The translations under genes and the position numbers were made by a program. From Patescibacteria group bacterium (GTDB lineage Bacteria > Patescibacteriota > Microgenomatia > Levybacterales > UBA12049), in assembly GCA_038063415.1 (NCBI GenBank), contig JBBTVD010000006.1, positions 299,914 through 363,913 on the forward strand: DNA of 64,000 bases. The letters are read 5' to 3'. Of this stretch, positions 5,763 through 56,337 are shown piece by piece. Every line of letters begins with the position of its first letter. Position 1 is the first letter of the stretch. The notes beneath the pieces are model-generated. The model saw nothing but the letters and a program-made list of their open reading frames with translations, had not been told where the DNA came from and did not search any database.

Positions 5763-6187
5763 AACGTCAAAAAGTAACACGAACTGATGTCTTATTCTTA
5801 AGTATTTCTGTCTTTATTGTGGTTTGTGCATGGATTGGGTTTAATATTTATCACAGTTGGGTCACAACAACCATCACCCCTGAACTCCAACAACAGATTA
5901 TCCCGATTGAAGCAAGTTTTGATACACAAACGATTAATGCACTGCGCAGTCGACAAGAGCTACAAGCATTAATGGATGCAGATCAACGCGCTGTTGCGGT
6001 AACACCAACAGCGGTACCACAGCCAAATAACATACAGCCAACCTTTTCCTTTTCGCAACCAAATACAACCGTAAGTCCACTACCAACAATTGCAACCTCT
6101 CCCGCTCCAACAGCGGAACAACAACCCATTGAAGTTGAGCAACCATCAGAAGACGAACAGACATTTGAAACCATTCAAGGACAATGA
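5759..6187 (+). CDS. Hypothetical membrane-anchored Pro/Gln/Thr-rich protein
   Basis: N-terminal TM and a low-complexity P/T/Q tail. Translationally coupled to its neighbours by 4-bp overlaps. Confidence 0.3.
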   Translation: MKRQKVTRTDVLFLSISVFIVVCAWIGFNIYHSWVTTTITPELQQQIIPIEASFDTQTINALRSRQELQALMDADQRAVAVTPTAVPQPNNIQPTFSFSQPNTTVSPLPTIATSPAPTAEQQPIEVEQPSEDEQTFETIQGQ

Positions 6188-7557
6188 GAGATCAAAAACA
6201 AAGCATATGGAACCAACGACTTCCCTCGTTTTTGGGAGTACTTGTGTTGCTTGTTTCTATCACTACTATTTTATGGCTGAGTCGAAACGCTGTGCTTTTT
6301 GGAACGCAAGCTGCAATAAGTAACACACCGCAAAAATTACAGATCAGCAATATTACTGATACTTCCTTTACCGTCTCCTATATAACAGAAGCCAAAGTAA
6401 TTGGTGCACTTGCCTATGGTCAAGATGCATCATTCGGAACGGTTAGTCAGGATGATCGAGACAAAACTGGGACACCAACAGAACATCGAGTCCATAGCAT
6501 GATAGTCTCGAGTCTAACTCCTGGAACTACCTATTTCTTTGCAATTGCTTCAGGGACAGAAACGTTTCTTGATCAAGGAAAACCCTATACGGTAACAACA
6601 GCTCGTACTGCTGGGACAAATAACGCAGATGCTCTGATGGCCAAAGGAAAGGTTACGCTTGCAGATGGATCTCTCCCCCTTGAAGGGATTGCGTATGTCT
6701 TTACACCAGAGTCGCAATTACTTTCAGGCATTATCCAGCCAGATGGTTCCTATAGCATTCCGCTAGGAACGCTGAGGACAAAAGACCTTGCAGGATTTGT
6801 AGCTATTACTCCGCAAGCCAACCTAAGCTTGATCGCAACAAATGGCACAGAAGAGTCGACGGTTTCAGTTCTGGGTGATCAAATTGATCCTATCCCGCCC
6901 GTTGTCTTATCAAAAACCTATGATTTCGCACTTGATGATACAAATGATAATGAAGCAACAATAGCAGCAACTACCGAAATTACCGCCTTCCCAACGGTTG
7001 AAGATACCGCCGAGGCAAAGCCACAAATTATTGCTCCACGAGAAGATGCAGAATTGCGCGATCCTCAGCCAATCTTCCGCGGAAAAGCGCTGCCCAATGA
7101 AACGGTTACGATCACTATTCAATCTGACCCAATTACGGTTACCGTAACAGCAGATGAAACCGGTAGTTGGGAATTTAGGCCAGAAGCACCCATTGAACCT
7201 GGTGAACATACCGTAACTATCGAAACGAAAAGTGATGTAGGACTTCTTGAAACGATAACCAATAGCTTCACCGTATTTGCGGAAGGAAGTGAGTTTATCG
7301 AACCATCTGTTGAGCCATCTATTTCTCCGACAAAAGCGCCGACAGCAACGCCAACACAGCAACCTTCACCATCCCCTTTACCAACAAAGGTCATAACGCC
7401 GTCGCCAACACAACAAATAACACAAGGACCAACTGTACAACCAACAGCTGGGCCAACAGTCGTTCCGGCTGGAAGTAGTGCAGTAATAACGGGAGTAGCT
7501 GTGACGGGTTTTCTTGCCACCATTGGCATGCTACTCTTTTTCTTCGCAATCGGGTAA
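6184..7557 (+). CDS. Surface protein with FN3-like and Ig-like domains, Thr/Pro-rich linker and C-terminal TM anchor
   Basis: N-terminal signal/TM. FN3-like block (LQISNITDTSFTVSY...TPGTTYFFAI). An approximately 60-aa PT-rich linker. C-terminal hydrophobic helix VTGFLATIGMLLFFFAIG. Confidence 0.5.
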   Translation: MRDQKQSIWNQRLPSFLGVLVLLVSITTILWLSRNAVLFGTQAAISNTPQKLQISNITDTSFTVSYITEAKVIGALAYGQDASFGTVSQDDRDKTGTPTEHRVHSMIVSSLTPGTTYFFAIASGTETFLDQGKPYTVTTARTAGTNNADALMAKGKVTLADGSLPLEGIAYVFTPESQLLSGIIQPDGSYSIPLGTLRTKDLAGFVAITPQANLSLIATNGTEESTVSVLGDQIDPIPPVVLSKTYDFALDDTNDNEATIAATTEITAFPTVEDTAEAKPQIIAPREDAELRDPQPIFRGKALPNETVTITIQSDPITVTVTADETGSWEFRPEAPIEPGEHTVTIETKSDVGLLETITNSFTVFAEGSEFIEPSVEPSISPTKAPTATPTQQPSPSPLPTKVITPSPTQQITQGPTVQPTAGPTVVPAGSSAVITGVAVTGFLATIGMLLFFFAIG

Positions 7558-7566
7558 AATAGAAAA

Positions 7567-8853
7567 ATGAAGATTGCAATTATTGGTGCCGGATTTACCG
7601 GGCTTTCAGCAGCCTATCGACTAACCAAAAAAGGTCATCAGGTTACCGTTTTTGAAAAAGACGAGTTACCTGGAGGACTTGCTATTGGCTATCAAGAGAA
7701 AGGCTGGGAATGGTCTCTTGAAAAGCATTATCATCACTGGTTTACCAATGATCCCTTTATCCTCGGACTGGCAAAGGAGATAGGCTTCCCAGTGCTTACC
7801 AAACGACCAAAAGCATCAGTTTATGTAAACAATAAAATCTATCAACTTGATTCTCCCATGGCACTGCTTACTTTCCCGGAGCTTCCTCTCATTGATCGAT
7901 TACGTATGGCAGTAATCTTTGCCGTACTTCGACTTAACCCTCTTTGGCAGCCGTTGGAAAAAATTAATGCCAATACGTTTCTTACCACCTATATGGGTAA
8001 AAAAGCCTATGGTATGCTATGGGAACCGCAGCTCCGCAACAAAATGGGTAAGTATGCTGACGATATCTCACTCGTATGGTTTTGGAGTCGCGTAAGCAAG
8101 CGTACACCTTCGCTTGCCTATCCAAAAGGGGGCTTTCTCTCCTTTGCCAATGCTGTTGTTGCAACAATTGAAAAAAATGGGAGTAAAGTCATTTATAATG
8201 CCGAAACGCAAGAAATTACCGATGGAGAAAAGGTTCGCATCAAAAGTAAAATCAATGGAAAAAGCAAAACTGAGACATTCGATCGAGTTATCGTTACCCT
8301 GCCTTCTTTCCTTTTTCTCAAGATGACCCCACAGCTGCCTGCAAGTTATACAAAAAAATTAGTTCGGCTTCGCGGGCTTGCGGCGACCAATATGGTGCTA
8401 CGTTTAAAGAAACCATTTTTGCCAAATGACACCTATTGGCTCAGCATCTGCAAACACAATTCTCCCGTTATGGTACTTGTCGAGCATACCAATATGATCG
8501 ATAAAAAATATTATAATAACGAACATCTTTTGTATATCGGTAATTATCCGGAACGGGATAGTGAACTATTTAATAAAACGAAAGAGCAAACGCTTGCGTA
8601 TTATCACAAATTTCTTGAAGAAATTCATCCAGGGTATAAAAAAGACATTATCGGCTATGAACTCTTTAAAGCTCCCTTTGGACAACCAATTGTCCCGGTG
8701 AACTATTCAAAGCTTATTCCTCCTATGCAGACGCCTTTGCCACATGTCTTCCTGGCAAATATCGAACAAGTCTACCCACATGATCGGGGGACAAACTATG
8801 CTGTTGAGCTAGGAGAGAAGGTTGCAAGGTTAGTTGAACATGAAAATAGATAA
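7567..8853 (+). CDS. FAD/NAD(P)-binding oxidoreductase (amine-oxidase/desaturase/UGM-like fold)
   Basis: N-terminal Rossmann motif IAIIGAGFTGLSAAYRL...EKDELPGG. 428 aa. Confidence 0.6.
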   Translation: MKIAIIGAGFTGLSAAYRLTKKGHQVTVFEKDELPGGLAIGYQEKGWEWSLEKHYHHWFTNDPFILGLAKEIGFPVLTKRPKASVYVNNKIYQLDSPMALLTFPELPLIDRLRMAVIFAVLRLNPLWQPLEKINANTFLTTYMGKKAYGMLWEPQLRNKMGKYADDISLVWFWSRVSKRTPSLAYPKGGFLSFANAVVATIEKNGSKVIYNAETQEITDGEKVRIKSKINGKSKTETFDRVIVTLPSFLFLKMTPQLPASYTKKLVRLRGLAATNMVLRLKKPFLPNDTYWLSICKHNSPVMVLVEHTNMIDKKYYNNEHLLYIGNYPERDSELFNKTKEQTLAYYHKFLEEIHPGYKKDIIGYELFKAPFGQPIVPVNYSKLIPPMQTPLPHVFLANIEQVYPHDRGTNYAVELGEKVARLVEHENR

Positions 8854-9046
8854 AAAACTGGCAAAAATTCTTTCAAACTTTTATGCAGATCTTGCAAAAG
8901 CATATTTTATCGGAACATTCATTACACCGATACTGAATGGAATTTCTTCACTAAACGAATTTGCGTGGATCTTGACTAAGGGATTACTCAGTGTTATCCT
9001 TCTATTACTCATTGCTTGGCGTTTTGCAAAAGTTGATGAAGTATAA
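8834..9046 (+). CDS. Small hypothetical membrane protein
   Basis: 70-aa ORF with two hydrophobic segments. A second roughly 42-aa TM ORF lies at 9049-9177 (not in the ORF track). Confidence 0.25.
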   Translation: MNMKIDKKLAKILSNFYADLAKAYFIGTFITPILNGISSLNEFAWILTKGLLSVILLLLIAWRFAKVDEV

Positions 9047-9207
9047 GTATGAATTGGCTTGATGTTTTTAATTCTGGAGTAATTTTTGCTTTACTTGCTG
9101 TCATTGCAGGAGCACTGTTACTCTTGGTCGCTAAAAAACAATCTAAAGAATCTCACACAAAATCTTCCAAAAGATAATCGACTACTGTTACAATAAAAAG
9201 TACTTGT

Positions 9208-10911
9208 ATGATAACGTTACCATATAAAAGGTCTTTCCTCTTTATCATTTTTTTAACAGTAATTGGAACCTTTCTTCACTTCTATAATCTCAATTGGGGA
9301 GCACCTTTTTACTTTCACCCGGATGAAAGGAATATCGCTTCAGCTGTCGCGCAACTTTCTTTCCCTGATCAGATGAATCCGAACTTTTTTGCCTATGGTT
9401 CATTACCTCTCTATGTTATTTACTTTACGGGCTATCTTTTACAGCTATTCATGCAGTTCTTTGACAAACAGATAACAACATATAACCCAACCTTTGAGCA
9501 GGCAGTTATTATTAGTCGATTCTACTCAGCAATGTTTGCGACCTTGTTAATCCCCATACTGTATTTAGTTGGTAAAAAGATGTCTTCTTCCCGTCATTCT
9601 GGGGAGCAAGGCGACGCCAGAATCTCTAACAAAGGTTTATTTAAACGATTCTGGACAAGCCAGAATGACGAAAATACAGGTCTCTTTACGGCATTCTTTG
9701 CGACGATGAGTGTGGGCTTTATCCAATTTGCTCATTTTGGTACGTTTGAAATGTGGTTGACTTTTTTTAGCATCCTTCTTTTTTGGCTGTGTTTACAGAA
9801 AGTCACCAGAAAAACGGTGCTGCTTGCGGGGATTATCTTTGGCACATTGATTGCCGTTAAAATTTCTTCACTTGTTCTTATCATCCTCCCATTGCTATGG
9901 ATTAGCATTGGGACGTACAAAAAAACGTCCCGGGTAAAATCACTGCTTCATATAATAAAAAGTTTGCTGTTACTGCTCATTATTGCGTTCTTGGTCTACG
10001 CAGTAAGTAATCCGTATATCTTTTTTGACACACCTGGCTTTCTTGGAAGTATGCGGTATGAATCGGGAGTAGGGCTGGGAACTACTGCAGTCTTTTATAC
10101 CCAAGCCTTTATGGGGACTATTCCCGTGCTCTTCCAATTCATCTCAGTATATCCTTTTTTGCTTAATCCCCTTGTGACGATTCTTTTTGTCCCAGTAGTA
10201 TTCTTTTTTACCTGGAAAACATTTCAGACAAAAAGGAATGCGCATATTATGCTCCTTTTATTTTTTATCATCCTTTTTGTTTCGCAAGCGTTTCTGTTTG
10301 TGAAATGGACACGATATATGGTTCCGACCTTACCATTTGTATATCTTATACTTAGCATTATTCTTCTGCCTTGGATGAAAAAATTAAAGTATTTTGTGGG
10401 AATAAGTATCATTGTTACGACAATACTTTTCACCCTTTCCTATTTTATCGTTGCTTATATCCAACAAGATACGCGTTTGCAAGCACAAAAATTTGTGGAA
10501 CAACATATCCCACAGGGAAGCCATATCCTGAGCGAAACCTATGATATTGGCATCCTCCCGATCCAATATAGCCAACCTCTCATGACACAGTATGATTTTT
10601 ATGAACTTGATAATAACTCATTTGAGTATACGCCGCAAACACTTACCGAGGCACTCGAATTAGCAGATTATATTGTTTTCCCTAGTCATCGAGTGATCCA
10701 GAGTCGTCTTTCCAATCCAAAAGTATTTCCTCATGGACATACGTTCTATACGAATGTACTCAATGAAACAGCTGGATTTACCAAAATATACGAGACACCT
10801 TGCGACCTTTTCTGCAAGATTACTTATCTGGGAAATCCGATACAAGCCTACGAACAGACGGCAAATGTATTTGATCGACCAACAGTTTTTATCTTTCAAA
10901 AAAGTTACTAA
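9208..10911 (+). CDS. Polytopic membrane glycosyltransferase, GT-C superfamily (ArnT/PMT, GT39/83-like)
   Basis: More than 10 predicted TM segments. N-terminal YNLNW...HPDER motif shared with the paralog at 12526. Carries an in-frame mini-element at 9647-9670. Confidence 0.6.
   Translation: MITLPYKRSFLFIIFLTVIGTFLHFYNLNWGAPFYFHPDERNIASAVAQLSFPDQMNPNFFAYGSLPLYVIYFTGYLLQLFMQFFDKQITTYNPTFEQAVIISRFYSAMFATLLIPILYLVGKKMSSSRHSGEQGDARISNKGLFKRFWTSQNDENTGLFTAFFATMSVGFIQFAHFGTFEMWLTFFSILLFWLCLQKVTRKTVLLAGIIFGTLIAVKISSLVLIILPLLWISIGTYKKTSRVKSLLHIIKSLLLLLIIAFLVYAVSNPYIFFDTPGFLGSMRYESGVGLGTTAVFYTQAFMGTIPVLFQFISVYPFLLNPLVTILFVPVVFFFTWKTFQTKRNAHIMLLLFFIILFVSQAFLFVKWTRYMVPTLPFVYLILSIILLPWMKKLKYFVGISIIVTTILFTLSYFIVAYIQQDTRLQAQKFVEQHIPQGSHILSETYDIGILPIQYSQPLMTQYDFYELDNNSFEYTPQTLTEALELADYIVFPSHRVIQSRLSNPKVFPHGHTFYTNVLNETAGFTKIYETPCDLFCKITYLGNPIQAYEQTANVFDRPTVFIFQKSY
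9647..9670. repeat. Palindromic mini-element, core GATTCTGGACAAGCCAGAATGACG
   Basis: Perfect 8-bp arms CATTCTGG/CCAGAATG around ACAAG. Identical 24-mer at 21046-21069. Lies in frame inside a GT-C gene. Confidence 0.7.
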
Positions 10912-12459
10912 CTATTCAACTGTTCCAAGAAGAAATGCTTTATCTTTTCCATTGGGGTAATAGATTGTTTGTCTGATATGAAATTTTTCTTTTAGACGAG
11001 GTGCCATTACCTCTTCAGGTCTGAGAATATACAGTGTTGTTGAGCTTTTTGTGACGGAAATCTTTCCTGTGACTATTTTGGTATATTCCCTTTTAGGATC
11101 ATAAAATTTTGTGTAAATGTGTGGACCGTAGGCAATCTGTGGGGTGATAACAAATCGATCATATTCGCCGTAGTGTTGTTGTACATAAGTAAAAATCTGG
11201 CGGTATCCATACTGCCATCCCCCATAGGTCGCAGCAACTGTCTGTTTTTCGTAGGCAAGCAAGATTTTTAATTCATGATACCCAAAGATCATAAAGAGCA
11301 CACAAAGCGTAATGGGCACAAAGAGATACAAACGTGATAAAAATCGTTTGGCATGTCCAAGACTACCTTCAATACCATAGGTTATAAAAATGAAAAAGAG
11401 GGGGAGAAGCGCTACTGAACGATAACTGTCAAATCCTCGAATGGTTAATGATGCAGGTATCATAGCAAGAAGCGCCGCAAACAAAATGAGTTGAGAGAAA
11501 AAATCTTTTTTTATTGTTCTATAGATAACTATTCCTATTCCGATAAACAAAAAAATGCCAAGATACCAAGGAATCAGACTTGTACCGATAATACTATGTG
11601 TATAGACAGCAAAGTCTGGCGGACGATATGTCGATCCAAAGTATGCTTGCATTGATAGATGACTAAACAGGTTAGTCATAAAGCATGATAGTACTTTTTC
11701 ACTACAAAAAAGCGGGAGCTCATTAGCTCGATAAAAAAACGATCCATCAAGGACATAAGGGATAGCAAGAAGAAATGTTGTGATAAAGAAACTCAGTAAG
11801 AAAAATAGTTGCGACAAGGGTAATTTTATTTTTTTGGCTGTCCATAAGGAGAGTGCCATCATACCAACCGCAAGTACTTTACCAGCAGCATACATATAAA
11901 AAAGTCCCCCAATAGAAATTCCAAGAAACATGAGTAAGAAAAATCTCTTTTGGAACTTTTTTTCATGAAGTCTCTCAACAAAAAAGAGTGATAAAGCAAA
12001 AAAAAGCGCAGTCATCATAAATTCCATGCCAATACGAGAAAGTAAAAATACCCAAGCAATGATAGGCCAGCATAAGGCAGCCAAACAGAAGCTCACAAAA
12101 GAGACTTTTTTTCTCAGTAAAAGATACAAAATACACAGCAATAAGATTGAAGCAATCACACTCGTCAATCGAACTGCAAATTCAGTCAGTCCAAACAGTA
12201 CAATAAACGGAATAACGAGGTAGGTATATTCATGATGATTTCTTGTTGGATCACCAGGGCCCACATAAAATAAACGAGGAAGGAAATCTCCGCTACTACT
12301 AAGCCCATTATTTGTGAGCAAGTGATACGCTTCATAGCCATAGGTAGATTCATCAATAAAGAAGCCAGGAGGATTCTCTGTCAAACGATAAGTAAAGATA
12401 ATAAAAGGAAGTAACAAAAGAACTATCACCAGGAGAATTTTCTTCCATGCTTTCTTCAT
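10912..12459 (-). CDS. Polytopic membrane glycosyltransferase, GT-C superfamily (ArnT/PMT-like)
   Basis: Multi-TM protein. The true ATG is at 12459 (MKKAWKK), because the track start is non-ATG. Divergent from the paralog starting at 12526. Confidence 0.55.
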   Translation of the reverse strand: MKKAWKKILLVIVLLLLPFIIFTYRLTENPPGFFIDESTYGYEAYHLLTNNGLSSSGDFLPRLFYVGPGDPTRNHHEYTYLVIPFIVLFGLTEFAVRLTSVIASILLLCILYLLLRKKVSFVSFCLAALCWPIIAWVFLLSRIGMEFMMTALFFALSLFFVERLHEKKFQKRFFLLMFLGISIGGLFYMYAAGKVLAVGMMALSLWTAKKIKLPLSQLFFLLSFFITTFLLAIPYVLDGSFFYRANELPLFCSEKVLSCFMTNLFSHLSMQAYFGSTYRPPDFAVYTHSIIGTSLIPWYLGIFLFIGIGIVIYRTIKKDFFSQLILFAALLAMIPASLTIRGFDSYRSVALLPLFFIFITYGIEGSLGHAKRFLSRLYLFVPITLCVLFMIFGYHELKILLAYEKQTVAATYGGWQYGYRQIFTYVQQHYGEYDRFVITPQIAYGPHIYTKFYDPKREYTKIVTGKISVTKSSTTLYILRPEEVMAPRLKEKFHIRQTIYYPNGKDKAFLLGTVE

Positions 12460-12525
12460 ATTTTTTAAGCATACCATAGATCTACTGCTTGTTTTGACAA
12501 AAAAAACCCTGCTACAATACAAACT

Positions 12526-14175
12526 ATGGGGGCATCCAAACAAAAACTACTGCTTATCGCAATCATCATCATTGCCTGCTTCTTCCGCTTTTATAATCTG
12601 AACTGGGATCAAGGATATCACCTGCATCCTGACGAACGATTTTTGACCATGGTTGGTAACTCCATGCAGATACCAAATTCCTTTACACACTACCTTGATG
12701 CTTCCACTTCTCCGATGAATCCTGTCAATATCGGTTATCCCTTTTATGTCTATGGAACCTCCCCACTTGTCCTGAACAAATTGATTGCTGTCGGACTCGG
12801 GACTGATACCTATGGGGATTTTACCATCCAAGGAAGATTTTTATCAGGATTCTTTGATATTCTGACCTTAGTTTTTCTTATTAAGCTGCTTGCACTGCTC
12901 TGCAAGAAAAGACATCTTCCAACAGCAATCGTACCACTGGGAGCATTTTTTTATGCAGTTTCGGTGCTTCCGATACAACTCTCCCATTATTTTGCGGTTG
13001 ATACATTCTTATCCTTTTTTGTCCTGACCAGCTTTTATACCCTACTGAAGTATTGCTATGAAGGGAAAGTACGTTTTCTGGTACTCAGTGGCCTTTTGAT
13101 AGGCTTTGCCGTGGCAGCAAAAGTAAGTGCTGTGTACATTCTTCCGCTCCATGCACTTATTCTGTTGTGGAGCCGCGGGATGTTGCATCAGAAATTCTTC
13201 TCCAAACAATTTCTTGGCCGAATGGCTCTTTTTGGCGTTTGTTTTTATGTAGCATTGCATCTCGCGGGCCCTTACTATTTTGCCGAAGGCGCCCTGATCA
13301 ATCCGATGCCAAATCCAACGTTTCTAGCCAATATCGCAACCCTTAAATCCTATGAATCAATTACCTTTCCGCCTTCCGTACAATGGTATAGTACTACCCC
13401 AATTATCTTCCCTCTTTATAATCTTGCTTTCTTTGGTGTGGGCGTTGGCTATTTTATATTACTTGTCGCAGGGATCTTCTTCCTCGTTAAAAAATATCGT
13501 TATCCTGAACTCATTATTTTGCTCATCTGGGCCGGACTCTTTTTCCTCTATCAATCAACGCAACTGGTTAAAACAATGCGCTACTTTATCTTCCTCTATC
13601 CGTTCTTTGCTTTTTTTGCCACGGTAGGATTTGTTTCCATTTTTGGAAAAACAAAAGTATGGATACAAGGCATTGTCATTGCTCTTGTTCTGATCTGGCC
13701 ACTCTCCTTTATGTCAATTTATGTGCAACCAATGACAAGAGTTGCAGCTACCAACTGGATTGGAGACAATATCCCCCAGGGGAGTCTTATGCTCAGTGAA
13801 CTCTGGGATGATGGTTTGCCACTACCCCTTCCCAATAAATATTATCCAGGGGAACAGTTACCGGTCTTTGATCTGGATACTCCTGAAAAATGGCAACGCA
13901 TGGATGGACTGCTTGAAAGAGGTGATTATCTCGTACTCTCATCAAATAGAGGTTGGGGGAGCATCCCCAAAGTACCAGATCATTATCCACAAATGAGTGT
14001 TTTTTATGCTGATCTTTTTGCCGGGAAACTCCCGTATAAAAAGATACAAGAGTTTACGTCCTATCCTTCACTAACCTACCTAGGTATCCCGTTGACCTTT
14101 CCTGACGGCAGTGCGGATGAAGCCTTTAGCGTCTATGATCATCCACAGGTGATGATTTTTCAGCATGTTCGTTAA
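12526..14175 (+). CDS. Polytopic membrane glycosyltransferase, GT-C superfamily (ArnT/PMT-like), paralog of 9208
   Basis: FYNLNWDQGYHLHPDERF motif shared with the 9208 ORF. 549 aa, multi-TM. Confidence 0.6.
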   Translation: MGASKQKLLLIAIIIIACFFRFYNLNWDQGYHLHPDERFLTMVGNSMQIPNSFTHYLDASTSPMNPVNIGYPFYVYGTSPLVLNKLIAVGLGTDTYGDFTIQGRFLSGFFDILTLVFLIKLLALLCKKRHLPTAIVPLGAFFYAVSVLPIQLSHYFAVDTFLSFFVLTSFYTLLKYCYEGKVRFLVLSGLLIGFAVAAKVSAVYILPLHALILLWSRGMLHQKFFSKQFLGRMALFGVCFYVALHLAGPYYFAEGALINPMPNPTFLANIATLKSYESITFPPSVQWYSTTPIIFPLYNLAFFGVGVGYFILLVAGIFFLVKKYRYPELIILLIWAGLFFLYQSTQLVKTMRYFIFLYPFFAFFATVGFVSIFGKTKVWIQGIVIALVLIWPLSFMSIYVQPMTRVAATNWIGDNIPQGSLMLSELWDDGLPLPLPNKYYPGEQLPVFDLDTPEKWQRMDGLLERGDYLVLSSNRGWGSIPKVPDHYPQMSVFYADLFAGKLPYKKIQEFTSYPSLTYLGIPLTFPDGSADEAFSVYDHPQVMIFQHVR

Positions 14176-14183
14176 TATTCCCT

Positions 14184-15368
14184 ATGCATAGATCTTTTAC
14201 GTTCTTTCTTATATTGGGTGTTGGACTAAGTATTCACATATTTTTTTATCTTTCCGCGTATGTAACCCACTCGCTTGATTATTTCTTCCCAGGAGGAACA
14301 ATTCATGCATATCAGGGCATTGATTTCTTCCAAGTCCCCAATGGCATGCATGCATTCTTGCATGGTGGAGCACTTACTGGAGAAGGTGCATTAACCTCGT
14401 ATGCTTATGGAAATACAAACGTGTACCACCCATTTTTTACCCAAGTGGTTGGTTATTTCTTCCAACTTTTTCCACCCCAGACAGCCTTTCTCTTGTGGGG
14501 GGCAATCAAATTTTTTATTACCATTGGCATGGCGATACTCTTGCTTCTCAAATATTGGACAAATAAAAGTCTTCCCTTTGCTTTGCTACTCTTTTTTATA
14601 TTCTTTCCGCAGTATCTTGAAATATGGAATGGACAATATCATTTTCTGCTTACCACCTCGCTATTTTTTGTTATCTATGCTTTTCTCAATAAACAATCTC
14701 CCTTTATCATTGGCATCTGGTACTGTATCAGTCTCCTTGTTAAACCAATTGGGTTATTATGGCTTCCTCTTTTTGCCATACGGAGACAATGGATAGTCCT
14801 CCTCACCGGTATGGGGCTTTTTGTTGCAGTGAGTCTTCCTTATCTATTCAATGGTCATGGGGCATATTATTTTGTAAATCTTTTTGAGCGGGTGAATAAT
14901 CCAATAGGGGGACCACCAGGTATCTTTACGCTTGATGCACTCCTTCGTTTTTGGCAGATGCCAACCGAGATGGTTTCAGCTTTGCGGTATACAACACTCG
15001 CATTGTTAGCTTTTATTGAAATCAAATTTCGCCCCAAACTGCTTGTTAGCTTTTTCCTTTGGACAACGTCCTATCTCTTATTTTATGATTTTGTCTTTGA
15101 ATATCATTACACCATTCTTATTCCGATTTTTGTCTTTGGGGTGATGACAGAGAAAATCTTTCAAAAAAATTTTTCCAAAATACTGATGATTATTACTTGT
15201 CTTCCTACACCATTTTTCCTTATGCATTTACTCCAAATAGAAACAACTGGGGCACTCGTAACTGATACAGGATGGACACTCCTTGTTCTCTTCCGAATTA
15301 TCCCACTGCTCTTGCTTGGTTATTTAATGATTGCAGATCTTATGCAGAAGAAACCGACTCACCAGTAA
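14184..15368 (+). CDS. Hypothetical polytopic membrane protein
   Basis: 394 aa and about 10 hydrophobic helices. Sits within the glycosylation cluster. Confidence 0.4.
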   Translation: MHRSFTFFLILGVGLSIHIFFYLSAYVTHSLDYFFPGGTIHAYQGIDFFQVPNGMHAFLHGGALTGEGALTSYAYGNTNVYHPFFTQVVGYFFQLFPPQTAFLLWGAIKFFITIGMAILLLLKYWTNKSLPFALLLFFIFFPQYLEIWNGQYHFLLTTSLFFVIYAFLNKQSPFIIGIWYCISLLVKPIGLLWLPLFAIRRQWIVLLTGMGLFVAVSLPYLFNGHGAYYFVNLFERVNNPIGGPPGIFTLDALLRFWQMPTEMVSALRYTTLALLAFIEIKFRPKLLVSFFLWTTSYLLFYDFVFEYHYTILIPIFVFGVMTEKIFQKNFSKILMIITCLPTPFFLMHLLQIETTGALVTDTGWTLLVLFRIIPLLLLGYLMIADLMQKKPTHQ

Positions 15369-16488
15369 GTATCTCACGTAACACTTTGCCATTTACATCG
15401 TTATCAAGCACTTCTTTGGGGAGTTCTTTTCGTTTTTGAATCTCATTTCTTTTTTTGATAAACTCAATAACTTTTGCAGCCAAATCTTGATGATTTTCAG
15501 AGACAAAGAGATACCCAAAACCTGTCATTTTCACCAGATAGCGAAGCCCCCTGACATCCGTAACAATAGCTGGTGTACCGGCAAGCATTGCTTCTGCCTG
15601 AACAAGAGAAAAACAATCAAGACGTGAAGGAATAATAATTGCTTCTATAGTAGAATAAAAGGTTTGTAACTCTTCGGCATTAAGTAATCCAAGAAAAGTA
15701 ATGTGCTCTTTTACACCCGAAAATAATGTAGCATTCTTTCCAAAGAAGTCTTCATATGGCATATCTTTTTGTCCGGCAAAAACAAAATGTGCCTCTGGAT
15801 ATTTTTCTCTAATAAGTGGAATTGCTTTAAAAAGAATATCAAAGCCTTTCTCCTCAACAAACCTCCCGGCAAATCCAAACAGCAAAAGCTTTTTCTTTGC
15901 TAATGCTGCAAGCTTTGGGACTGGTTTACTTTTTGGAAGCGCTGCCATAGGTAAAATAACTGGGGTAAACTTTTTGAGAAATGGACTCAGGACATGAGAA
16001 CCTTTAGCATAATCCAAGGTGTAGGTACTTAATCTATCAGCGAGCGAAAAAGAAGCAAATGACGAAATGTCAAAAAGTTTCTCAACAATCTTATTGGTAA
16101 ATCCTTGTGGCAATAACAGGTCTGCATGATGAAAAATAACGAGTCGTTTGCCAAATAGTTTTGTCAGAAGAGCAAAAGGAATGCTATTACTACAGGGAGA
16201 ATTTAGGAGAATAATATCATTTTTTTGCAAAAGGGAAATGAGTTTGAAGATTGTCTGTACAGAGTATTTTACCCTACTCAAACGAAAGAGATAAGGCTCA
16301 CGAATAATACGGATGTTACCATGTTGCTCAACTCTCGCAAGATCTCTCTCATGTTGTACTGTCAAAAGAGTAACAGGATAAAACTTTTCTAAGTAACTTG
16401 CGATATTATCAATTGCTTTGGCAAAGCCTGTCCAATGAGGTGTGTAGAAATCAGTGAGGATGAGGATACGTTGCTGTTTTTTCGTCAT
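15340..16488 (-). CDS. Glycosyltransferase family 4 (GT-B fold)
   Basis: C-terminal GT4 motifs (FGFAGRFVEEKG...EAMLAGTPAIVTD). ATG at 16488 (MTKKQQ); the ORF-track start is a TTG. Confidence 0.7.
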   Translation of the reverse strand: MTKKQQRILILTDFYTPHWTGFAKAIDNIASYLEKFYPVTLLTVQHERDLARVEQHGNIRIIREPYLFRLSRVKYSVQTIFKLISLLQKNDIILLNSPCSNSIPFALLTKLFGKRLVIFHHADLLLPQGFTNKIVEKLFDISSFASFSLADRLSTYTLDYAKGSHVLSPFLKKFTPVILPMAALPKSKPVPKLAALAKKKLLLFGFAGRFVEEKGFDILFKAIPLIREKYPEAHFVFAGQKDMPYEDFFGKNATLFSGVKEHITFLGLLNAEELQTFYSTIEAIIIPSRLDCFSLVQAEAMLAGTPAIVTDVRGLRYLVKMTGFGYLFVSENHQDLAAKVIEFIKKRNEIQKRKELPKEVLDNDVNGKVLREILTGESVSSA

Positions 16489-16547
16489 TTCAAACAAAAG
16501 CTTCTTTTGCTATTATAGAGTATAGTTAGAAAAAATGCTTTGTAATT

Positions 16548-17099
16548 ATGCGTATCGGTTTTGATCTCGACAATATTTTTATTGGTGGCCCACCTCTCAT
16601 CCCACATACTATCATTGAACGGATGTACAAAAAAAGAGATCATGGAGAACTCCTTTATCGTATTCCTTCATATCCTGACCAATTACTCAGGCAAATCATC
16701 CATCTACCAATGCTTCGTCCACCAATGAAAAAAAACTTGGTCTTTCTGGAAGCGTTGGCAAAAAAAAATAAAAACCTTTATCTTATTTCAAGCCGATATA
16801 AATTCCTTGAAAAAAGAACCGCAGCACTAGTTAAAAAACACAAACTTGACACACACTTCCACCAAATGTTTTTTAACTTTGCCAACGAGCAACCACATCT
16901 TTTCAAAAATGCTATACTAAAGGAACTAAAACTTGATAGTTATGTTGATGATGACCTTTCACTTCTCAAATATGTTGCAAAAGACAATCCAACAACAACC
17001 TTCTTCTGGCTCACAAGCGCCAACTACTCACAACCCTTGCCAAAAAATATTGTTCAGATTAGAGCGCTAACAGAAATAACAAAAGATAAAAAATTATGA
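16548..17099 (+). CDS. HAD-superfamily hydrolase-like protein (putative)
   Basis: N-terminal DLDN (DxD) motif and C-terminal YVDDD motif. Confidence 0.4.
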   Translation: MRIGFDLDNIFIGGPPLIPHTIIERMYKKRDHGELLYRIPSYPDQLLRQIIHLPMLRPPMKKNLVFLEALAKKNKNLYLISSRYKFLEKRTAALVKKHKLDTHFHQMFFNFANEQPHLFKNAILKELKLDSYVDDDLSLLKYVAKDNPTTTFFWLTSANYSQPLPKNIVQIRALTEITKDKKL

Positions 17100-19270
17100 A
17101 TCCAGTAGATTTACAATCAGTTATACAATGGTGGTTTGTTCTTCTTGTTTTGGGAGCTGGTTTTTTACCATTAACAATACTTATTTTCAAAAACTTCTTT
17201 GATCGAGGGTATATTTTCTCAAAAATTATTGGTCTGGGAATACTTTCTTATGTCAGTTTTCTGATTGGTGTTTTTCATATTGCTCCTTTCCGTACTGAGA
17301 CAATTTTTATTCTGGGGATATTACTTATCGCAGGATTTTTTTTCATCACCAAAAAATATGTTTCTGTTTTAACCTTTATCAAGCAACATTGGGCAATAAT
17401 CCTATTTGAGGAAGCCCTCTTCTTCACGACACTTCTTGCATGGGCCTATATCCATGCATTCGCACCAGATGTGCATGGCCTTGAAAAATACATGGACTAC
17501 GGATTTATCAATTCAATCCTACGTTCTGACTACTTCCCACCAAAGGATATGTGGTTTGCCCCTCACGTTATTAACTACTACTACTTTGGACATTTGATGA
17601 CTGCCCTTCTGACCAAAATCTCCTTTATTCCCTCCAATATTACTTTTAACTTGATGCTTTCAACAATTTTTGCCTTATGCTTTACGCAAACTTTTTCAAT
17701 AGGCGCCAATTTATTTGTACTCATGAAACAACATACCATGCCAGGAAGAATTAAAAGAGTTATTGCTGGCATTATGACAGCAGGAGTGGTCGCTCTCGGA
17801 GGAAATCTTCATATTCTGTATGCTTTTTTTAAGCCTTATCAAACAGATAATCCCCAGCCTTTTTGGACTTTACCATTTTTCCCGTTGGACTTTCCTAATG
17901 GGTATTGGTATCCCAATGCGACGCGTTATATTTTCAACACGATCCATGAATTTCCTATTTATTCCTGGGTTGTCGCAGATCTGCATGGGCATGTCCTTGA
18001 TATCCCTCTCGTGCTTTTTATTATCGCGCTCCTGCTTGCGCTCTTCCATCAGGAACACCAAACAGAAGCAACCATCCAGGTCAAAAAGAAAAGCTATCTT
18101 ACCTACTTTAGCGTGCACCCACTCTGGTCGATCGGTATTGGATTAACACTAGCTCTGATGTATATGACCAATGCCTGGGACGGAGCGATTTACCTTCTTC
18201 TGACTATTCTTGTCTTATTTAGTCTCTATAATGCTCTTCCCAAACATAAGATCCATACCTTTATTCTTTCCTTCGCGTTAGTTTTTCTTAGCTTTATTCT
18301 TTTTGCCCTCCCGTACAACAGTTACTTTACCCCATCTGCGGTATCTGGTATTGGTGTCCTTTGTGCACCCCAAGCACTTATCGATATGGGCAAATTTGGC
18401 CCGTTTTTGTTTGAAAAAGATCACTGCCAACATTCCTATTGGTGGGAACTGCTGACACTCTATGGATTCTTCTATTTCTTTATTATTTGTTTCCTGGTCT
18501 TTGCTGTACGAGCAAAGAAACTGCTGGAGACTGATCTCTTTGTTTTATTGCTCATCACTCTTGGAACGATCCTTATTATTATCCCTGAATTCGTCTATCT
18601 CAAGGACATTTACCCTGCACATTATCGAGCCAATACCATGTTTAAGCTTGTCTTCCAGGCATTTATGATATTGGGGATTAGCAGCATGTATATTCTGTTC
18701 CGACTAGGTGATAGAAAACCCCCTGCGATCCGTGCAATTTTCCGTTATCCGTTTCTTTTCGTCAGCGTTGTGCTGCTTGTTGCTGTGATGCAATATCCCA
18801 AGATCGCTATCAATTCATACTATGGCGATCTGAAAGACTATAAGGGCCTTGATGGAACTGTGTATCTCAAGACGCTTTATCCAACAGACTATGATGCCAT
18901 TCTGTGGATGAACAAAAATATCAAAGGACAGCCCGTCATCCTTGAGGCACAAGGGGATTCGTACACAGACTTCGCCCGTGTATCAGCCAATACTGGTCTC
19001 CCAACGGTTCTTGGTTGGACAGTACACGAATGGCTCTGGCGCGGTTCCTACGACGTCCCAGCACCGAGAATCGATGAGATTAAGACGATGTACGAGACAC
19101 AGGATCTAGCCAAGACGAAAGAGCTTTTGGATAAATATAACGTCGAGTATGTCTTTATCGGATCAATGGAATATCAAAAGCATCCAGAACTAGTTGAGTC
19201 AAAGTTTGATCAACTGGGAGATATGGTATTTGAGAAGGGGACGACGAAGATCTACCGCATTTACAAATAG
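17096..19270 (+). CDS. chlor_Arch_YYY / DUF2298 family large membrane protein (putative membrane glycosyltransferase)
   Basis: NYYYFGH signature. 724 aa with many TM helices. ATGA overlap with the upstream HAD-like gene. Confidence 0.6.
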   Translation: MNPVDLQSVIQWWFVLLVLGAGFLPLTILIFKNFFDRGYIFSKIIGLGILSYVSFLIGVFHIAPFRTETIFILGILLIAGFFFITKKYVSVLTFIKQHWAIILFEEALFFTTLLAWAYIHAFAPDVHGLEKYMDYGFINSILRSDYFPPKDMWFAPHVINYYYFGHLMTALLTKISFIPSNITFNLMLSTIFALCFTQTFSIGANLFVLMKQHTMPGRIKRVIAGIMTAGVVALGGNLHILYAFFKPYQTDNPQPFWTLPFFPLDFPNGYWYPNATRYIFNTIHEFPIYSWVVADLHGHVLDIPLVLFIIALLLALFHQEHQTEATIQVKKKSYLTYFSVHPLWSIGIGLTLALMYMTNAWDGAIYLLLTILVLFSLYNALPKHKIHTFILSFALVFLSFILFALPYNSYFTPSAVSGIGVLCAPQALIDMGKFGPFLFEKDHCQHSYWWELLTLYGFFYFFIICFLVFAVRAKKLLETDLFVLLLITLGTILIIIPEFVYLKDIYPAHYRANTMFKLVFQAFMILGISSMYILFRLGDRKPPAIRAIFRYPFLFVSVVLLVAVMQYPKIAINSYYGDLKDYKGLDGTVYLKTLYPTDYDAILWMNKNIKGQPVILEAQGDSYTDFARVSANTGLPTVLGWTVHEWLWRGSYDVPAPRIDEIKTMYETQDLAKTKELLDKYNVEYVFIGSMEYQKHPELVESKFDQLGDMVFEKGTTKIYRIYK

Positions 19271-19295
19271 TCTTGTCTTTGGTAAAATCCTTTTT

Positions 19296-19730
19296 ATGAG
19301 AAGAGGCGCTGAAGGAGAAAAACCACACAAACGTATACGAAAAATTGTACCCCCCTTAGCTTTTGCTACGGTAGTTAGTTTGGCTGGATGTGCAAATAAT
19401 GGAGAAGCGGTCCCGATCCAATCATACCCCAGTTTACGACTGACAGACAAAATAAATGGAACATACGATTTCTCATTAGAACAACGTGATGAATATCGCA
19501 TCGCCATAGTAGGGCATGATAGGGATGGAATAGATCTTCAAGAGCTTGAAGTAGCAGCTGGTACATTAGGACAACTTGATTGTGAAATTGACCCTAACAG
19601 ACCAGCTGAAGAGAGACGCGATGATCGACCAAATCCTGCAGAAGTAACAGTGTTTTCCCTTAATGGAGATTGTGTTACAAGAGCAGTGGATGCATTAGAG
19701 GAGATAGAACCACCTTTACCTACTGCATAA
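19296..19730 (+). CDS. Putative lipoprotein
   Basis: ATG at 19296; signal-like region ending in the lipobox LAGC. The track ORF start at 19194 overlaps the upstream gene and is rejected. Confidence 0.4.
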   Translation: MRRGAEGEKPHKRIRKIVPPLAFATVVSLAGCANNGEAVPIQSYPSLRLTDKINGTYDFSLEQRDEYRIAIVGHDRDGIDLQELEVAAGTLGQLDCEIDPNRPAEERRDDRPNPAEVTVFSLNGDCVTRAVDALEEIEPPLPTA

Positions 19731-19745: not shown

Positions 19746-20963
19746 TTATAACTCTACCGACCTTGTCGGTGTCGGTATCTTTGTTGGCTTGGGGGTTGGG
19801 GTTACAATCCCATACTCACCAACCATACAGGTCTTCCCCTTGAGGTAACATCCGACAAACTGTTGGATCTCAGTATAATCATCTGGTCCATTCCGTGGAG
19901 CCAGTACCCACTGATTGCCATACAGTGGACTGATGGGAGGATTCATAAGAAGACCGAGACGATCATCTGACGCATCTCCCATATCAATAACGGCACTCGT
20001 AATCTTTGCTCCTTCAAGTTTTTGGGCAAGTCTGATAAAGTCATCCAGCTCATCTTGTTTGATATCCATCTCAACACTATCCTTAAAGACTCCAAACAAG
20101 CTTGAAGCTTTCATCGGATTAAGAATTGTCCCCACTGAAAAGAGCTTATCTTTAAATGCATTAATGACCTTTTCTTGCCGCTTGGAACGGGCAAAGTCTG
20201 AGCCTTCCTTGCCAAGAGCATGTCGTGACCTGACAAATTTAAGAGCGGTCTCTCCATCCATGTGTGTTGGTCCTTTATCAAAATGCAGATGTTCATAACG
20301 GCAAGGGAAAGCATCCATAATGGTCATCGTTGCACTTTCTGAAGCGAGTTCTGCCGAGAGACTGGCAATTTCGGCTTCTGTATGTCCACAACTTGCAGCT
20401 TCTTTGCCAGCGACTGGATATTCATAATCATCAAAGGTTCGCGTGACATCGATATCCAGTCCATCTACCATATCAATTGCTTTGACAAAGCCATTGAAAT
20501 CAATCTTGATAGCATAATCAATCGGTTGTCCAAGAACCTCGCTAATCTTCTTCTTATTTGTTGCTAGACCACTCCCTGGATCGTTTTCGTCAGCCAGGGT
20601 ATAGATATGATTCACTTTTGACTGAGTATCGGGTATCCACAGATCTCGTGGCAAAGACACCATTCGTACATTTTTCTTCTCAGGATCTATTTGGGCAAAG
20701 ATGATCGTATCAGTCAGATTGGGGCCATCATGTTTTTCTCCACCAACTCCCAAGATAAGCAAATTTACTTTTTTTTCTGGCGTTTTTTTGAGGGCAATTT
20801 CTTTCTTGGCAACGGTATCCCAGAGGAATGGGAGAGCTTGAAATACTTTCAAAAGACCAAAGCCGAGGATGACCACGATAAATAACGCAAGTAAGATCTT
20901 TACGCGTTTACGGACTCCCTGTCCCTGCCGTCTTCTTCTGCTTGCATGTAACATATTATCCAT
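19746..20963 (-). CDS. LytR-CpsA-Psr (LCP) family cell-envelope glycopolymer transferase
   Basis: N-terminal TM. LCP core LILGVGGEKHDGPNLTDTIIFAQIDP...VSLPRDLWIP. Confidence 0.7.
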   Translation of the reverse strand: MDNMLHASRRRRQGQGVRKRVKILLALFIVVILGFGLLKVFQALPFLWDTVAKKEIALKKTPEKKVNLLILGVGGEKHDGPNLTDTIIFAQIDPEKKNVRMVSLPRDLWIPDTQSKVNHIYTLADENDPGSGLATNKKKISEVLGQPIDYAIKIDFNGFVKAIDMVDGLDIDVTRTFDDYEYPVAGKEAASCGHTEAEIASLSAELASESATMTIMDAFPCRYEHLHFDKGPTHMDGETALKFVRSRHALGKEGSDFARSKRQEKVINAFKDKLFSVGTILNPMKASSLFGVFKDSVEMDIKQDELDDFIRLAQKLEGAKITSAVIDMGDASDDRLGLLMNPPISPLYGNQWVLAPRNGPDDYTEIQQFVGCYLKGKTCMVGEYGIVTPTPKPTKIPTPTRSVEL

Positions 20964-21009: not shown

Positions 21010-21045
21010 ACAAAATAGAGCATTTTTTTTCTATAGATTCTGGAC

Positions 21046-21069
21046 AAGCCAGAATGACGTTTAGACTCT
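21046..21069. repeat. Palindromic mini-element, identical 24-mer to 9647-9670
   Basis: GATTCTGGACAAGCCAGAATGACG, intergenic. Confidence 0.7.
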
Positions 21070-55441: not shown

Positions 55442-55473
55442 ATGTATTATTATGGTCTGTTTTGCATTGATGA

Positions 55474-56297: not shown

Positions 56298-56337
56298 ATC
56301 CTAGGACTTCTCTTTAGTTTTACAGGAAATTGACCTA

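Follow-up and report, generated by a model that had tools for sequence, protein, structure and literature searches.

What does a block of genes encoding five GT-C-type membrane proteins build in the envelope of a Patescibacteria cell? The block lies at positions 7567-19730 of a stretch of 64,000 nucleotides (the window; G+C around 40%) from the metagenome-assembled genome of an uncultured groundwater (Hainich) member of the Patescibacteria, whose closest relatives are Microgenomates (Levy-, Roizman-, Woese-, Shapiro- and Gottesmanbacteria). A first-pass annotation of the window had proposed that the block O-glycosylates surface proteins and is matched to Thr/Pro-rich substrates encoded in the same window. 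We found that the block is the local Microgenomates version of a widespread module, the core of which consists of a glycosyltransferase of the GT-C fold class with an HPDER motif and a DUF2298 protein. Regarding the product, the reading that we tentatively put first is a glycan assembled on the outer face of the membrane and anchored to lipid or to the wall.

Three GT-C paralogs had been counted in the block, at 9208, 10912 and 12526, and a fourth at 59513. All four proteins are GT-Cs, but BLASTP and hhalign divide them into two pairs and not one set. In the first pair, GTCa, 9208 aligns with 12526 from end to end at 27% identity (E 9e-30). Those of the second pair, GTCb (10912 and 59513), share 31% identity over the N-terminal 210 aa (E 8e-11; hhalign 99.7%), and the two families are related to each other at the profile level only (hhalign 99%, E 8.5e-18). 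A DE dipeptide stands in loop 1, right after the first transmembrane segment, in all of them: D39E40 in 9208, D64E65 in 10912, D36E37 in 12526 and D90E91 in 59513. Among 31 sequences of the GTCa family, D36, E37 and the HPDER motif (in full, HLHPDERF) are invariant. The three named paralogs do not complete the count, given that the GT87-like protein at 14184 had not been named and the GT-C fold of the DUF2298 protein had not been recognised. Therefore, the block encodes five GT-C-type proteins within 10 kb, namely the two GTCa, one GTCb, the GT87-like protein and DUF2298.

Sequence and profile searches with the GT-Cs and DUF2298 against all PDB chains gave no matches, even at E 10. Sequence alone does not allow the GT-Cs to be placed meaningfully in one tree with PMT, ArnT or TfpW, and fold comparison is the only workable comparison with these enzymes, with the limit that a ranking by TM-scores of about 0.3-0.5 cannot separate acceptor classes. 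The AlphaFold (AF2) model of GTCa-2 (12526; pLDDT 88.4) has STT3 and AglB as its top folds (E 1.5e-7), followed by PglB, Pmt4, ArnT, Emb, ALG6 and AftA, with TM-scores near 0.5. As far as a predicted model goes, these matches fix the GT-C fold class, not the acceptor.

The DUF2298 protein carries a full-length match to its family, TIGR03662 (chlor_Arch_YYY), over residues 7-722. Y161, Y162, Y163 and G165 (the YYYxG motif) are invariant, as is the C-terminal loop GWTVHEWLWRG. NATRxIxxxIHEFP is a further invariant loop of the GTCa-DUF2298 pair. When its AlphaFold model (pLDDT 71.7, pTM 0.79) was compared with the PDB by Foldseek, only GT-C enzymes were found: DPY19, AftA (TM 0.47/0.55), AglB, STT3, PglB and ArnT. 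Furthermore, its C-terminal globular domain resembles the C-terminal domain of AglB (probability 0.99), and an hhalign chain leads from DUF2298 to the large membrane proteins of related loci (cluster c18, 95.5%) and from these to GTCb (96.6%). DUF2298 is thus itself a membrane protein of the GT-C fold. The family has 7,710 representatives (E <= 1e-3) in a library clustered at 50% identity, and our full-text literature searches found no functional study of it.

The core was followed across lineages in two samples. A profile scan with GTCa over one genome per species gave at least 586 relatives, and 80 of these loci were fetched. A second scan, seeded with DUF2298 proteins from outside the Candidate Phyla Radiation (CPR), gave 80 metagenome loci that are independent of the first sample (loci are cited below as L and library proteins as P). 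The GTCa relatives belong to Microgenomates, Chloroflexota, Acidobacteriota, Thermoanaerobaculia, Binatia, Bdellovibrionota, Sumerlaeia and Vulcanimicrobiota. A DUF2298 match stood beside GTCa in 61 of the 80 genome loci: the two are neighbours in Microgenomates and lie in the same open reading frame (ORF) in 27 of the 29 loci from other groups. In these fusions Pfam finds PMT_2 or PMT followed by DUF2298 within single proteins of 1,423-2,546 aa (L059, L064, L047 and L070), and the same union was confirmed by Pfam in a library protein of 2,434 aa (P0419). Fusions were present as well in 26 of the 80 independent metagenome loci. The fusion is strong evidence that both proteins work as a unit.

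Regarding the gene order, the Microgenomates loci commonly begin with MurJ and S20, continue with PilN, PilO, a small membrane protein and a surface protein with FN3 domains (in some loci with extra Pro/Thr-repeat proteins), and then bring a flavoenzyme and/or a UbiA-family gene, two GTCa genes and a variable slot, which holds GTCb, a GT87-like gene, methyltransferases, an epimerase or a GT2. The order ends with GT4, a HAD-like or PAP2 protein and DUF2298, after which come LCP, TIM, UvrD and FemAB. The accessory set was flavoenzyme plus HAD-like, as in the window, in 13 loci, HAD-like only in 14, flavoenzyme, UbiA and HAD-like in 5, and UbiA plus PAP2 in another 5. Outside the CPR, the recurrent order is a flippase-like protein (LPG_synthase_TM), GT4, a SAM methyltransferase, GTCb, the GTCa::DUF2298 fusion, DUF2298 and one or two TIGR03663/Agl23-like genes, the latter being constant neighbours of DUF2298 there. 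Taken together, both samples show that DUF2298 is repeatedly accompanied by the flavoenzyme, GT4 and PMT_2-like GT-Cs far beyond the CPR.

In six loci (L103, L111, L128, L142, L158 and L167; G+C 33-62%), DUF2298, an Agl23-like gene, a flippase-like gene and the flavoenzyme stand in a row. The flavoenzyme orthologs of these rows score 384-433 bits against the flavoenzyme profile, and their neighbours are bacterial (LysR, Nuo subunits, MutL). Therefore, the flavoenzyme is tied to the module independently of UbiA, and the rows hint that it acts on the lipid carrier or else on a lipid-linked sugar. Extracytoplasmic glycosylation by GT-Cs is already known; in the literature searched, we found no description of the core formed by GTCa and DUF2298, of their fusions or of the genes that regularly accompany them.

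Such a neighbourhood could also be read as shared synteny of cell-envelope genes that do not serve one pathway, in which case the GT-Cs would decorate separate targets (for example a teichoic-acid-like polymer, lipids or peptidoglycan) and the flavoenzyme, the GT4 and the HAD-like protein would be unrelated to them. Both strands of the block do carry genes, relatives differ in the middle part of the locus (GT87-like, methyltransferases, epimerase, GT2) and GT-Cs of the 59513 type stand alone in unrelated contexts. Nevertheless, GTCa and DUF2298 are fused in many phyla, and GT4, phosphatase and flavoenzyme recur with them across distant lineages. We regard this explanation as improbable.

The closest conserved partners of the GT-Cs are GT4, the phosphatase and DUF2298, rather than the Pro/Thr-rich proteins. 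A GT4 gene was near GTCa in 56 of the 80 genome loci. The HAD-like gene was present in 34 of the 80, all of them Microgenomates, it adjoins GT4 in most of its carriers, and the pair also occurs in Microgenomates loci without DUF2298 and FN3. The earlier identification of this 183-aa protein as HAD-like stands at the level of its family, in which a DxD motif (D6, D8), K120 and D135 are invariant and 7 of 26 members match HAD_2, but the protein itself has no Pfam match. Comparison with a solved phosphoribose phosphatase (PRP) domain detected no similarity, and its best PDB match was a deoxyribonucleotidase (E 0.12). A PAP2 protein takes its place between GT4 and DUF2298 in about 9 loci, which argues for a phosphatase activity as the conserved feature of that slot. 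A GT4 together with a phosphatase is the standard two-step route to a glycoside from a phosphorylated acceptor.

The flavoenzyme, which was found in 20 of the 80 genome loci, reaches 383 bits against NF005560/PRK07233 (cut-off 252). Its match to solved structures is confined to the generic FAD-binding N-terminus, and by this comparison Glf, DprE1 and the known desaturases are rejected as identities. A homolog of the UbiA-type decaprenyl-phosphate phosphoribosyltransferase (NF008977, 189 bits, just under the cut-off of 234) is encoded in 18 related loci, and in most of its Microgenomates carriers it directly precedes the two GTCa genes, often with PAP2. This pairing of a phosphoribosyltransferase with a PAP2 or HAD phosphatase suggests pentofuranose donors in the sister lineages. 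The GT87-like protein of the window passes the GT87 gathering threshold marginally, and among the related loci it has a homolog in L071 only; its gene occupies the slot that varies between loci.

By hhalign, GTCb has the TIGR03663/Agl23-like family as a relative (98.7%, E 1.9e-16), and neither GTCb protein of the window reaches the NCBIfam TIGR03663 model. Citing Lu et al. 2020, PMC11182771 reports that Agl23 of Haloarcula hispanica is associated with flippase activity towards the dolichol-phosphate hexose from which N- and O-glycans are made. Moreover, purified Agl23 moves Man5GlcNAc2-PP-dolichol in proteoliposomes, and a yeast rft1 deletion is rescued (PMC11182771). Through this kinship, one of the GT-C paralogs of the first-pass annotation may flip rather than transfer sugars. 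GTCb may thus be a transferase or, by analogy, a flippase of lipid-linked sugars, and the latter role would fill the flippase gap of the block.

From the gene content, the folds, the conserved neighbourhood and the fusions, all of them observed, we infer the following steps. At the inner face, the cytoplasmic GT4 would glycosylate a membrane lipid with the help of the HAD-like phosphatase and so make a primer. The primer and polyprenyl-phosphate sugars would then reach the outer face, where the Agl23-like GTCb may help with the flipping, and the five GT-C-type proteins would lengthen the glycan on the external side, with polyprenyl-phosphate sugars as donors. PMT_2-like GT-Cs work at the outer face of the membrane and take polyprenyl-phosphate sugars as donors. 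In the last step, the product would either remain a lipid-anchored lipoglycan or be attached to the wall by the adjoining LCP (LytR-CpsA-Psr) ligase. The flavoenzyme would act in this scheme by modifying the lipid-linked sugar or its lipid carrier.

This reading is favoured by the number and diversity of the GT-Cs, the constant GT4, the phosphatase slot, the GT87 member and the LCP ligase. It is also favoured by the flippase-like and methyltransferase genes outside the CPR, by UbiA and PAP2 in sister lineages, and by FemAB and MurJ in the wider neighbourhood; an MprF-type flippase domain outside the CPR fits the export of a modified lipid. Several points weigh against it. By tblastn and hidden Markov models (HMMs), neither the window nor the 6 kb upstream of it showed a UbiA gene, a GT2 Dpm1-like synthase or any other polyprenyl-phosphate-sugar synthase, a PAP2 of the type seen in these loci, a flippase-like gene, an Agl23-like gene or a phosphoglycosyl transferase. 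LCP ligases normally use polymers linked to polyprenyl diphosphate, and an initiating enzyme for such polymers was not seen. In addition, an LCP gene occupies the same position in 11 of the 80 loci, which are all close relatives. The best folds of GTCa (oligosaccharyltransferases, Pmt4) and DUF2298 (DPY19, the C-terminal domain of AglB) are those of protein-modifying enzymes, and giant DUF2298 proteins elsewhere carry C-terminal TPR repeats, as TfpW does. Finally, the tight operon link to Pro/Thr-rich sortase-type substrates in Microgenomates is explained by this reading only as a shared cell-envelope theme.

This last point leads to the original proposal: one or more GT-Cs would O-glycosylate Ser/Thr residues of Pro/Thr-rich stalks at the outer face from polyprenyl-phosphate sugars, with the FN3 protein and possibly the pilin-like proteins as acceptors, and the other GT-Cs would extend the sugars. 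The linkers on which it was based do exist: in a Pro/Thr scan of the window, the FN3 protein and the two pilin-like proteins had them, and no other protein did. In the FN3 protein, the Pro/Thr stretch (aa ~374-435) is followed by a degenerate VPAGS, a hydrophobic helix and the C-terminus. All 17 members of its family have the Pro/Thr stalk directly before the C-terminal hydrophobic helix, and 12 of the 17 carry a [LVIP]Px[TAS]G motif in their last 45 aa (LPKTG, IPKTG, LPVTG and similar). By its sequence, the FN3 protein is a sortase-type substrate, and it is a candidate acceptor. Nevertheless, its Pro/Thr stretch precedes a sorting signal and is therefore a wall-spanning stalk, a role that accounts for the composition without glycosylation. 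A sortase gene was not seen in the window; in L169, a sortase lies two genes from a GT-C of the 59513 type.

The physical link to the block is close. In the window, 9 nt separate the end of the FN3 gene from the flavoenzyme gene, and the distance is -29 to 37 nt in the relatives where this enzyme follows. On the plus strand, positions 6238-10799 contain no terminator-like site; the terminator and promoter scan gave counts near the shuffled expectation and adds little beyond the short gaps. PilN, PilO and FN3 lie upstream of the block in 16 related Microgenomates loci. At the same junction, further non-homologous (PT)n proteins with an LPxAG or LPxSG signal and a helix are encoded in L022, L030, L034, L038 and L042; L048 has an anchored (PT)n protein there and no FN3 was found, and the (PT)n proteins of L052 lack an anchor. 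In the other phyla, small anchored (PT)n proteins abut GT-C genes in L064, L065 and L077.

We counted Pro/Thr-rich genes within two positions of the module and further away. In Microgenomates they were 15 of 227 near genes and 4 of 279 far ones (p 0.002), a sample that is non-independent because of the shared synteny. In the other phyla of the GTCa-seeded sample they were 5 of 111 near and none of 103 far (p 0.036). However, the enrichment was not reproduced in the 80 DUF2298-seeded metagenome loci (1 of 233 near, 2 of 290 far; p 0.83), and none of the 26 fusion loci of that sample has a Pro/Thr-rich neighbour. Furthermore, the Microgenomates loci L012-L020 keep GTCa, GT4 and the HAD-like gene without FN3 or any Pro/Thr-rich neighbour. 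The association with Pro/Thr-rich proteins therefore belongs to one gene order of the Microgenomates and to some isolated cases elsewhere, and does not characterise the module as such. The match between GT-Cs and Pro/Thr-rich substrates holds as a position directly downstream of FN3 in Microgenomates, but it is weak elsewhere.

O-glycosylation of the stalks is also in line with the loop-1 DE, which is as in PMTs, with some family members above the Pfam PMT threshold, and with fold neighbours that include oligosaccharyltransferases, Pmt4 and DPY19, as well as with the TPR domains of some DUF2298 fusions. It has precedents in Cbes_1864 of C. bescii (PMC6151902), in actinobacterial Pmt and in TfpW (bioRxiv 10.1101/2020.04.19.049825). 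On the other hand, a monosaccharide system has no need for a GT4 and a phosphatase, the pilin-like proteins are more than 30 kb away, and the donor supply that it would draw on, a polyprenyl-phosphate-sugar synthase, is one of the genes not found in the window. We consider this reading a serious rival, although less probable than the lipid- or wall-anchored glycan.

Nor do the family tests support the PMT/ArnT/TfpW-type identity that the GT-Cs of the window had been given. Against PMT (PF02366), GTCa-2 reaches 20.0 bits with a cut-off of 22.7 and the other window GT-Cs are unmatched, whereas some homologs and fusions do pass it (L059, 54 bits; P0419, 43 bits). PMT_4TMC (PF16192) gave no match at E <= 0.01 in the window GT-Cs and is absent from the precomputed Pfam lists of the homologs. 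The acidic DE motif of the PMTs in the first extracytoplasmic loop is present in all four PMT_2-like window proteins. Regarding ArnT, none of the GT-Cs matches the NCBIfam ArnT models at E <= 0.01, the block has no Arn-type genes, and ArnT is only a mid-ranked fold match of the GTCa and DUF2298 models. TfpW is recognised by its position directly downstream of pilA, a DDX in loop 1, a YX6PFX7P in loop 4 and C-terminal TPR repeats (bioRxiv 10.1101/2020.04.19.049825). A regular-expression scan found neither DDX nor YX6PFX7P in the right place in the window GT-Cs, and the window proteins have no TPR match in Pfam. The block is also more than 29 kb from the pilin genes, and some 10 kb lie between 59513 and the pilin at 48585-49076.

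The folds raise a further possibility, that an oligosaccharide built on a lipid carrier is transferred en bloc to protein by GTCa or DUF2298 acting as an oligosaccharyltransferase, with the GT4 working inside, an Agl23-like protein flipping and the GT-Cs extending, much as in the N-glycosylation of eukaryotes and archaea. The GT4 family includes ALG2 and ALG11. The best Foldseek matches of GTCa are STT3, AglB and PglB (E 1.5e-7 to 2e-4), with ALG6 and ALG3 lower, the C-terminal domain of DUF2298 resembles that of AglB as said above, and the Agl23-like genes, whose purified archaeal relative translocates lipid-linked oligosaccharide (PMC11182771), are constant beside DUF2298. However, the window proteins have no STT3 match in Pfam and neither a WWDYG in the right place nor a WWD motif, the sole 'WWE' being at residue 449 of DUF2298, within the membrane part. 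TM-scores of about 0.3-0.5 cannot split oligosaccharyltransferases from ArnT or Aft, the search for a phosphoglycosyl transferase with which a diphosphate-linked glycan could begin found none, and there is no known acceptor sequon. We therefore give this route little credence.

Giant DUF2298 proteins of 2,000-2,750 aa (P0451, P0482 and P0459) contain two DUF2298 copies and C-terminal TPR repeats; actually, three of the four giant library proteins end in such repeats. An Acidobacteriota fusion (L059, 9980-17620) joins a PMT-like GT-C, DUF2298 and an NHL beta-propeller. TPR and NHL domains often bind proteins, therefore a protein acceptor stays possible for the DUF2298 family. Extended to its furthest, this would make the HPDER GT-C and DUF2298 a new class of protein O-glycosyl- or oligosaccharyltransferase for Pro/Thr stalks before sorting signals in CPR and Chloroflexota, supplied with flipped sugars by Agl23-like proteins, which we find doubtful. 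The family name chlor_Arch_YYY suggests that Archaea could be included.

The link between the 59513-type enzyme and pilins did not hold. Its family is small, with 93 matches, and the three homolog contexts examined are unrelated to each other and all without pilins. In the window, the gene adjoins a histidine kinase (61404-63353) and a PAP2-family protein (63362-63949), a grouping that is not kept in those three contexts; the stretch 55474-58823 encodes two response regulators, a further kinase and a FIST protein. The two pilin-like proteins have prepilin-type N-termini (G/FTFIE and G/FSILE) and sit in a type IV pilus cluster with PilC (52680-53765) and PilB (53762-55477). Behind the (PT)n linkers, both have the same C-terminal domain (about 220 aa, identical in the two), whereas their N-terminal pilin-like parts differ. 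A domain cassette or a tandem duplication of recent date would give this picture.

The features are collected in Table 1. The genes named by the first-pass annotation in the block, and their positions, held up against Pfam, NCBIfam and the translations, as did the identities of the GT4 (E 6e-29), DUF2298 (511 bits) and FAD oxidoreductase. The gene callers place the start of the 10912 gene at around 12477 and not 12543, and that of the GT4 at 16488 and not 16497. Regarding the flanks, PilO and the LCP ligase (E 5e-31) are confirmed by family matches, the latter with one transmembrane segment (residues 16-48) as N-terminal membrane anchor, but PilN is assigned from its position only. PilN and PilO start the same-strand gene run that leads into the block. 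The 142-aa membrane protein that follows them clusters with ORFs of 5 related loci and overlaps both neighbours by 4 nt. The small membrane proteins of the block exist as ORFs, but they are unconfirmed as genes: neither has homologs in the related loci, and one of them appears in just one of two gene callings. Homologs of the lipoprotein-like ORF were not found in the related loci either.

Table 1. Position, strand and basis of assignment of the features of the window
Feature	Coordinates	Strand	Basis
PilN-like	4531-5145	+	Position only
PilO	5142-5762	+	Pfam E 6.5e-15
Membrane protein, 142 aa, Pro/Thr/Ser-rich tail	5759-6187	+	Translation
FN3/Big_13 surface protein	6184-7557	+	Pfam Big_13, fn3
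FAD-dependent oxidoreductase (flavoenzyme), PRK07233/amine-oxidase-like	7567-8853	+	Amino_oxidase E 1e-24
Two small hydrophobic ORFs, 70 and 42 aa	8834-9046, 9049-9177	+	Unconfirmed as genes
GTCa-1, 'HPDER' PMT_2-like GT-C	9208-10911	+	GTCa HMM 155 bits
GTCb, PMT_2-like, Agl23-related GT-C	10912-12477	-	PMT_2 23.7 bits
GTCa-2, 'HLHPDERF' GT-C	12526-14175	+	Family spread, synteny, AF2 model
GT87-like (PimE-type) polytopic membrane protein, 394 aa	14184-15368	+	Pfam GT87 27.7 bits (cut-off 25)
GT4 cytoplasmic glycosyltransferase	15340-16488	-	Glycos_transf_1 E 6e-29
HAD-like phosphatase candidate, 183 aa	16548-17099	+	Family DxD/K/D, weak HAD matches in relatives
DUF2298/chlor_Arch_YYY, GT-C fold	17096-19270	+	TIGR03662 511 bits (cut-off 300.25)
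Small lipoprotein-like ORF, lipobox LAGC	19296-19730	+	Translation, gene calling
LCP ligase, convergent with DUF2298	19746-20963	-	LytR_cpsA_psr E 5.4e-31
Two pilin-like proteins with (PT)n linkers	50143-51384, 51387-52676	-	Translations, Pro/Thr scan
Second GTCb-type PMT_2 GT-C, outside the block	59513-61246	-	PMT_2 51 bits

A palindromic repeat with the core TTCTGGACAAGCCAGAATGAC lies in frame within the GTCa-1 gene at 9586-9680 and adds 27 residues, SSSRHSGEQGDARISNKGLFKRFWTSQ, which are absent from the orthologs. Exact or near copies of it are found at 21036-21059, 23228-23248, 30479-30492, 39543-39641 and 49519-49581, in intergenic spacer and in other ORFs that include UvrD and a pilin-like ORF, and none appeared in 100 shuffles. 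In the roughly 6 kb that directly precede the window (L085), at least 10 kb from the block, there are genes of the Inositol monophosphatase family, GH18 and the PIG-L/LmbE deacetylase family, none of which was seen in the related loci compared. A GT4 and a PIG-L deacetylase are reminiscent of GlcNAc-inositol or GlcNAc-PI pathways.

Glycosylation in Patescibacteria is essentially unexplored. A study of Saccharibacteria pili, for instance, only predicted pilin glycosylation and called for tests (PMC11623550). The GT-C fold of DUF2298, its union with GTCa and the GT4, Agl23-like, flippase-like and flavoenzyme companions make a concrete, testable pathway in many phyla, and some of the carriers, including cultured Chloroflexota, make genetics and biochemistry possible. 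Whichever acceptor proves right, the finding would bear on a main component of the surface in organisms whose way of life is attachment to other cells. If the GTCa-DUF2298 unit does modify the stalks, the missing O-glycosylation machinery for sorted surface proteins would have been found; the interest would then be high, and it is moderate now.

Regarding the known systems, single-enzyme protein glycosylation is represented by Cbes_1864 of C. bescii, a GT39-type enzyme of 556 aa encoded near the cellulase CelA with its Thr-Pro linkers, the deletion of which abolishes protein glycosylation (PMC6151902). Like the GT39-type and Pmt enzymes, the block GT-Cs are polytopic, of about 550 aa, with a loop-1 DE, weak PMT/PMT_2 matches and an adjoining Thr/Pro-linker protein. 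However, the block has no Ppm1-type synthase nearby and combines five GT-Cs with a GT4 and a phosphatase, as opposed to a single enzyme. With Pseudomonas TfpW the block shares the (ArnT-like) GT-C fold, the type IV pilus genes of the window, the DPPR-synthase-type UbiA of sister loci and the TPR repeats of some DUF2298 fusions, whereas the window GT-Cs have DE instead of DDX in loop 1, do not follow a pilin and are not accompanied by DprE1/E2. Haloarchaeal Agl23 (TIGR03663) has profile-level relatives in the GTCb family (10912 and 59513), although it was characterised in archaeal N- and O-glycan pathways and the window proteins stay under the TIGR03663 model.

In the three-component pentofuranose systems, a PPPRS that includes a HAD phosphoribose-phosphatase domain works with a MATE flippase and a GT-C of family GT136 (Kelly et al. 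2024, PMC11127046), and their variants have several GT-Cs, FAD oxidoreductases and NAD epimerases (commentary PMC11194591). The block likewise has GT-Cs and a HAD-type candidate, and related loci carry the UbiA-type polyprenyl-phosphate phosphoribosyltransferase; however, the window lacks a PPPRS, the scan of its proteins gave no MATE flippase, and the acceptor of these systems is an O antigen.

The last comparison is with the mycobacterial and corynebacterial assembly of lipoglycans and arabinogalactan (PimA/PimB of GT4, PimE/Mpt of GT87, the GT-Cs Emb/Aft, the UbiA Rv3806c, the PAP2 Rv3807c, DprE1/E2 and the ligase Lcp1). Unlike it, the block has no Emb/Aft-family (Arabinose_trans) match, the window has no UbiA, the flavoenzyme is amine-oxidase/PRK07233-like whereas DprE1 belongs to FAD_binding_4, and mycobacteria have no counterpart of the HPDER GT-C and DUF2298 core. 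Like it, the block unites in one locus a cytoplasmic GT4 and several extracytoplasmic GT-Cs, with a GT87-type member, an adjoining LCP ligase and an FAD enzyme, and in sister Microgenomates the UbiA-type phosphoribosyltransferase stands with PAP2 beside the GT-Cs, a mirror of the pair Rv3806c and Rv3807c. By analogy, the logic that we propose for the block matches the mycobacterial assembly of phosphatidylinositol mannosides, lipomannan and lipoarabinomannan (PIM/LM/LAM) and of arabinogalactan.

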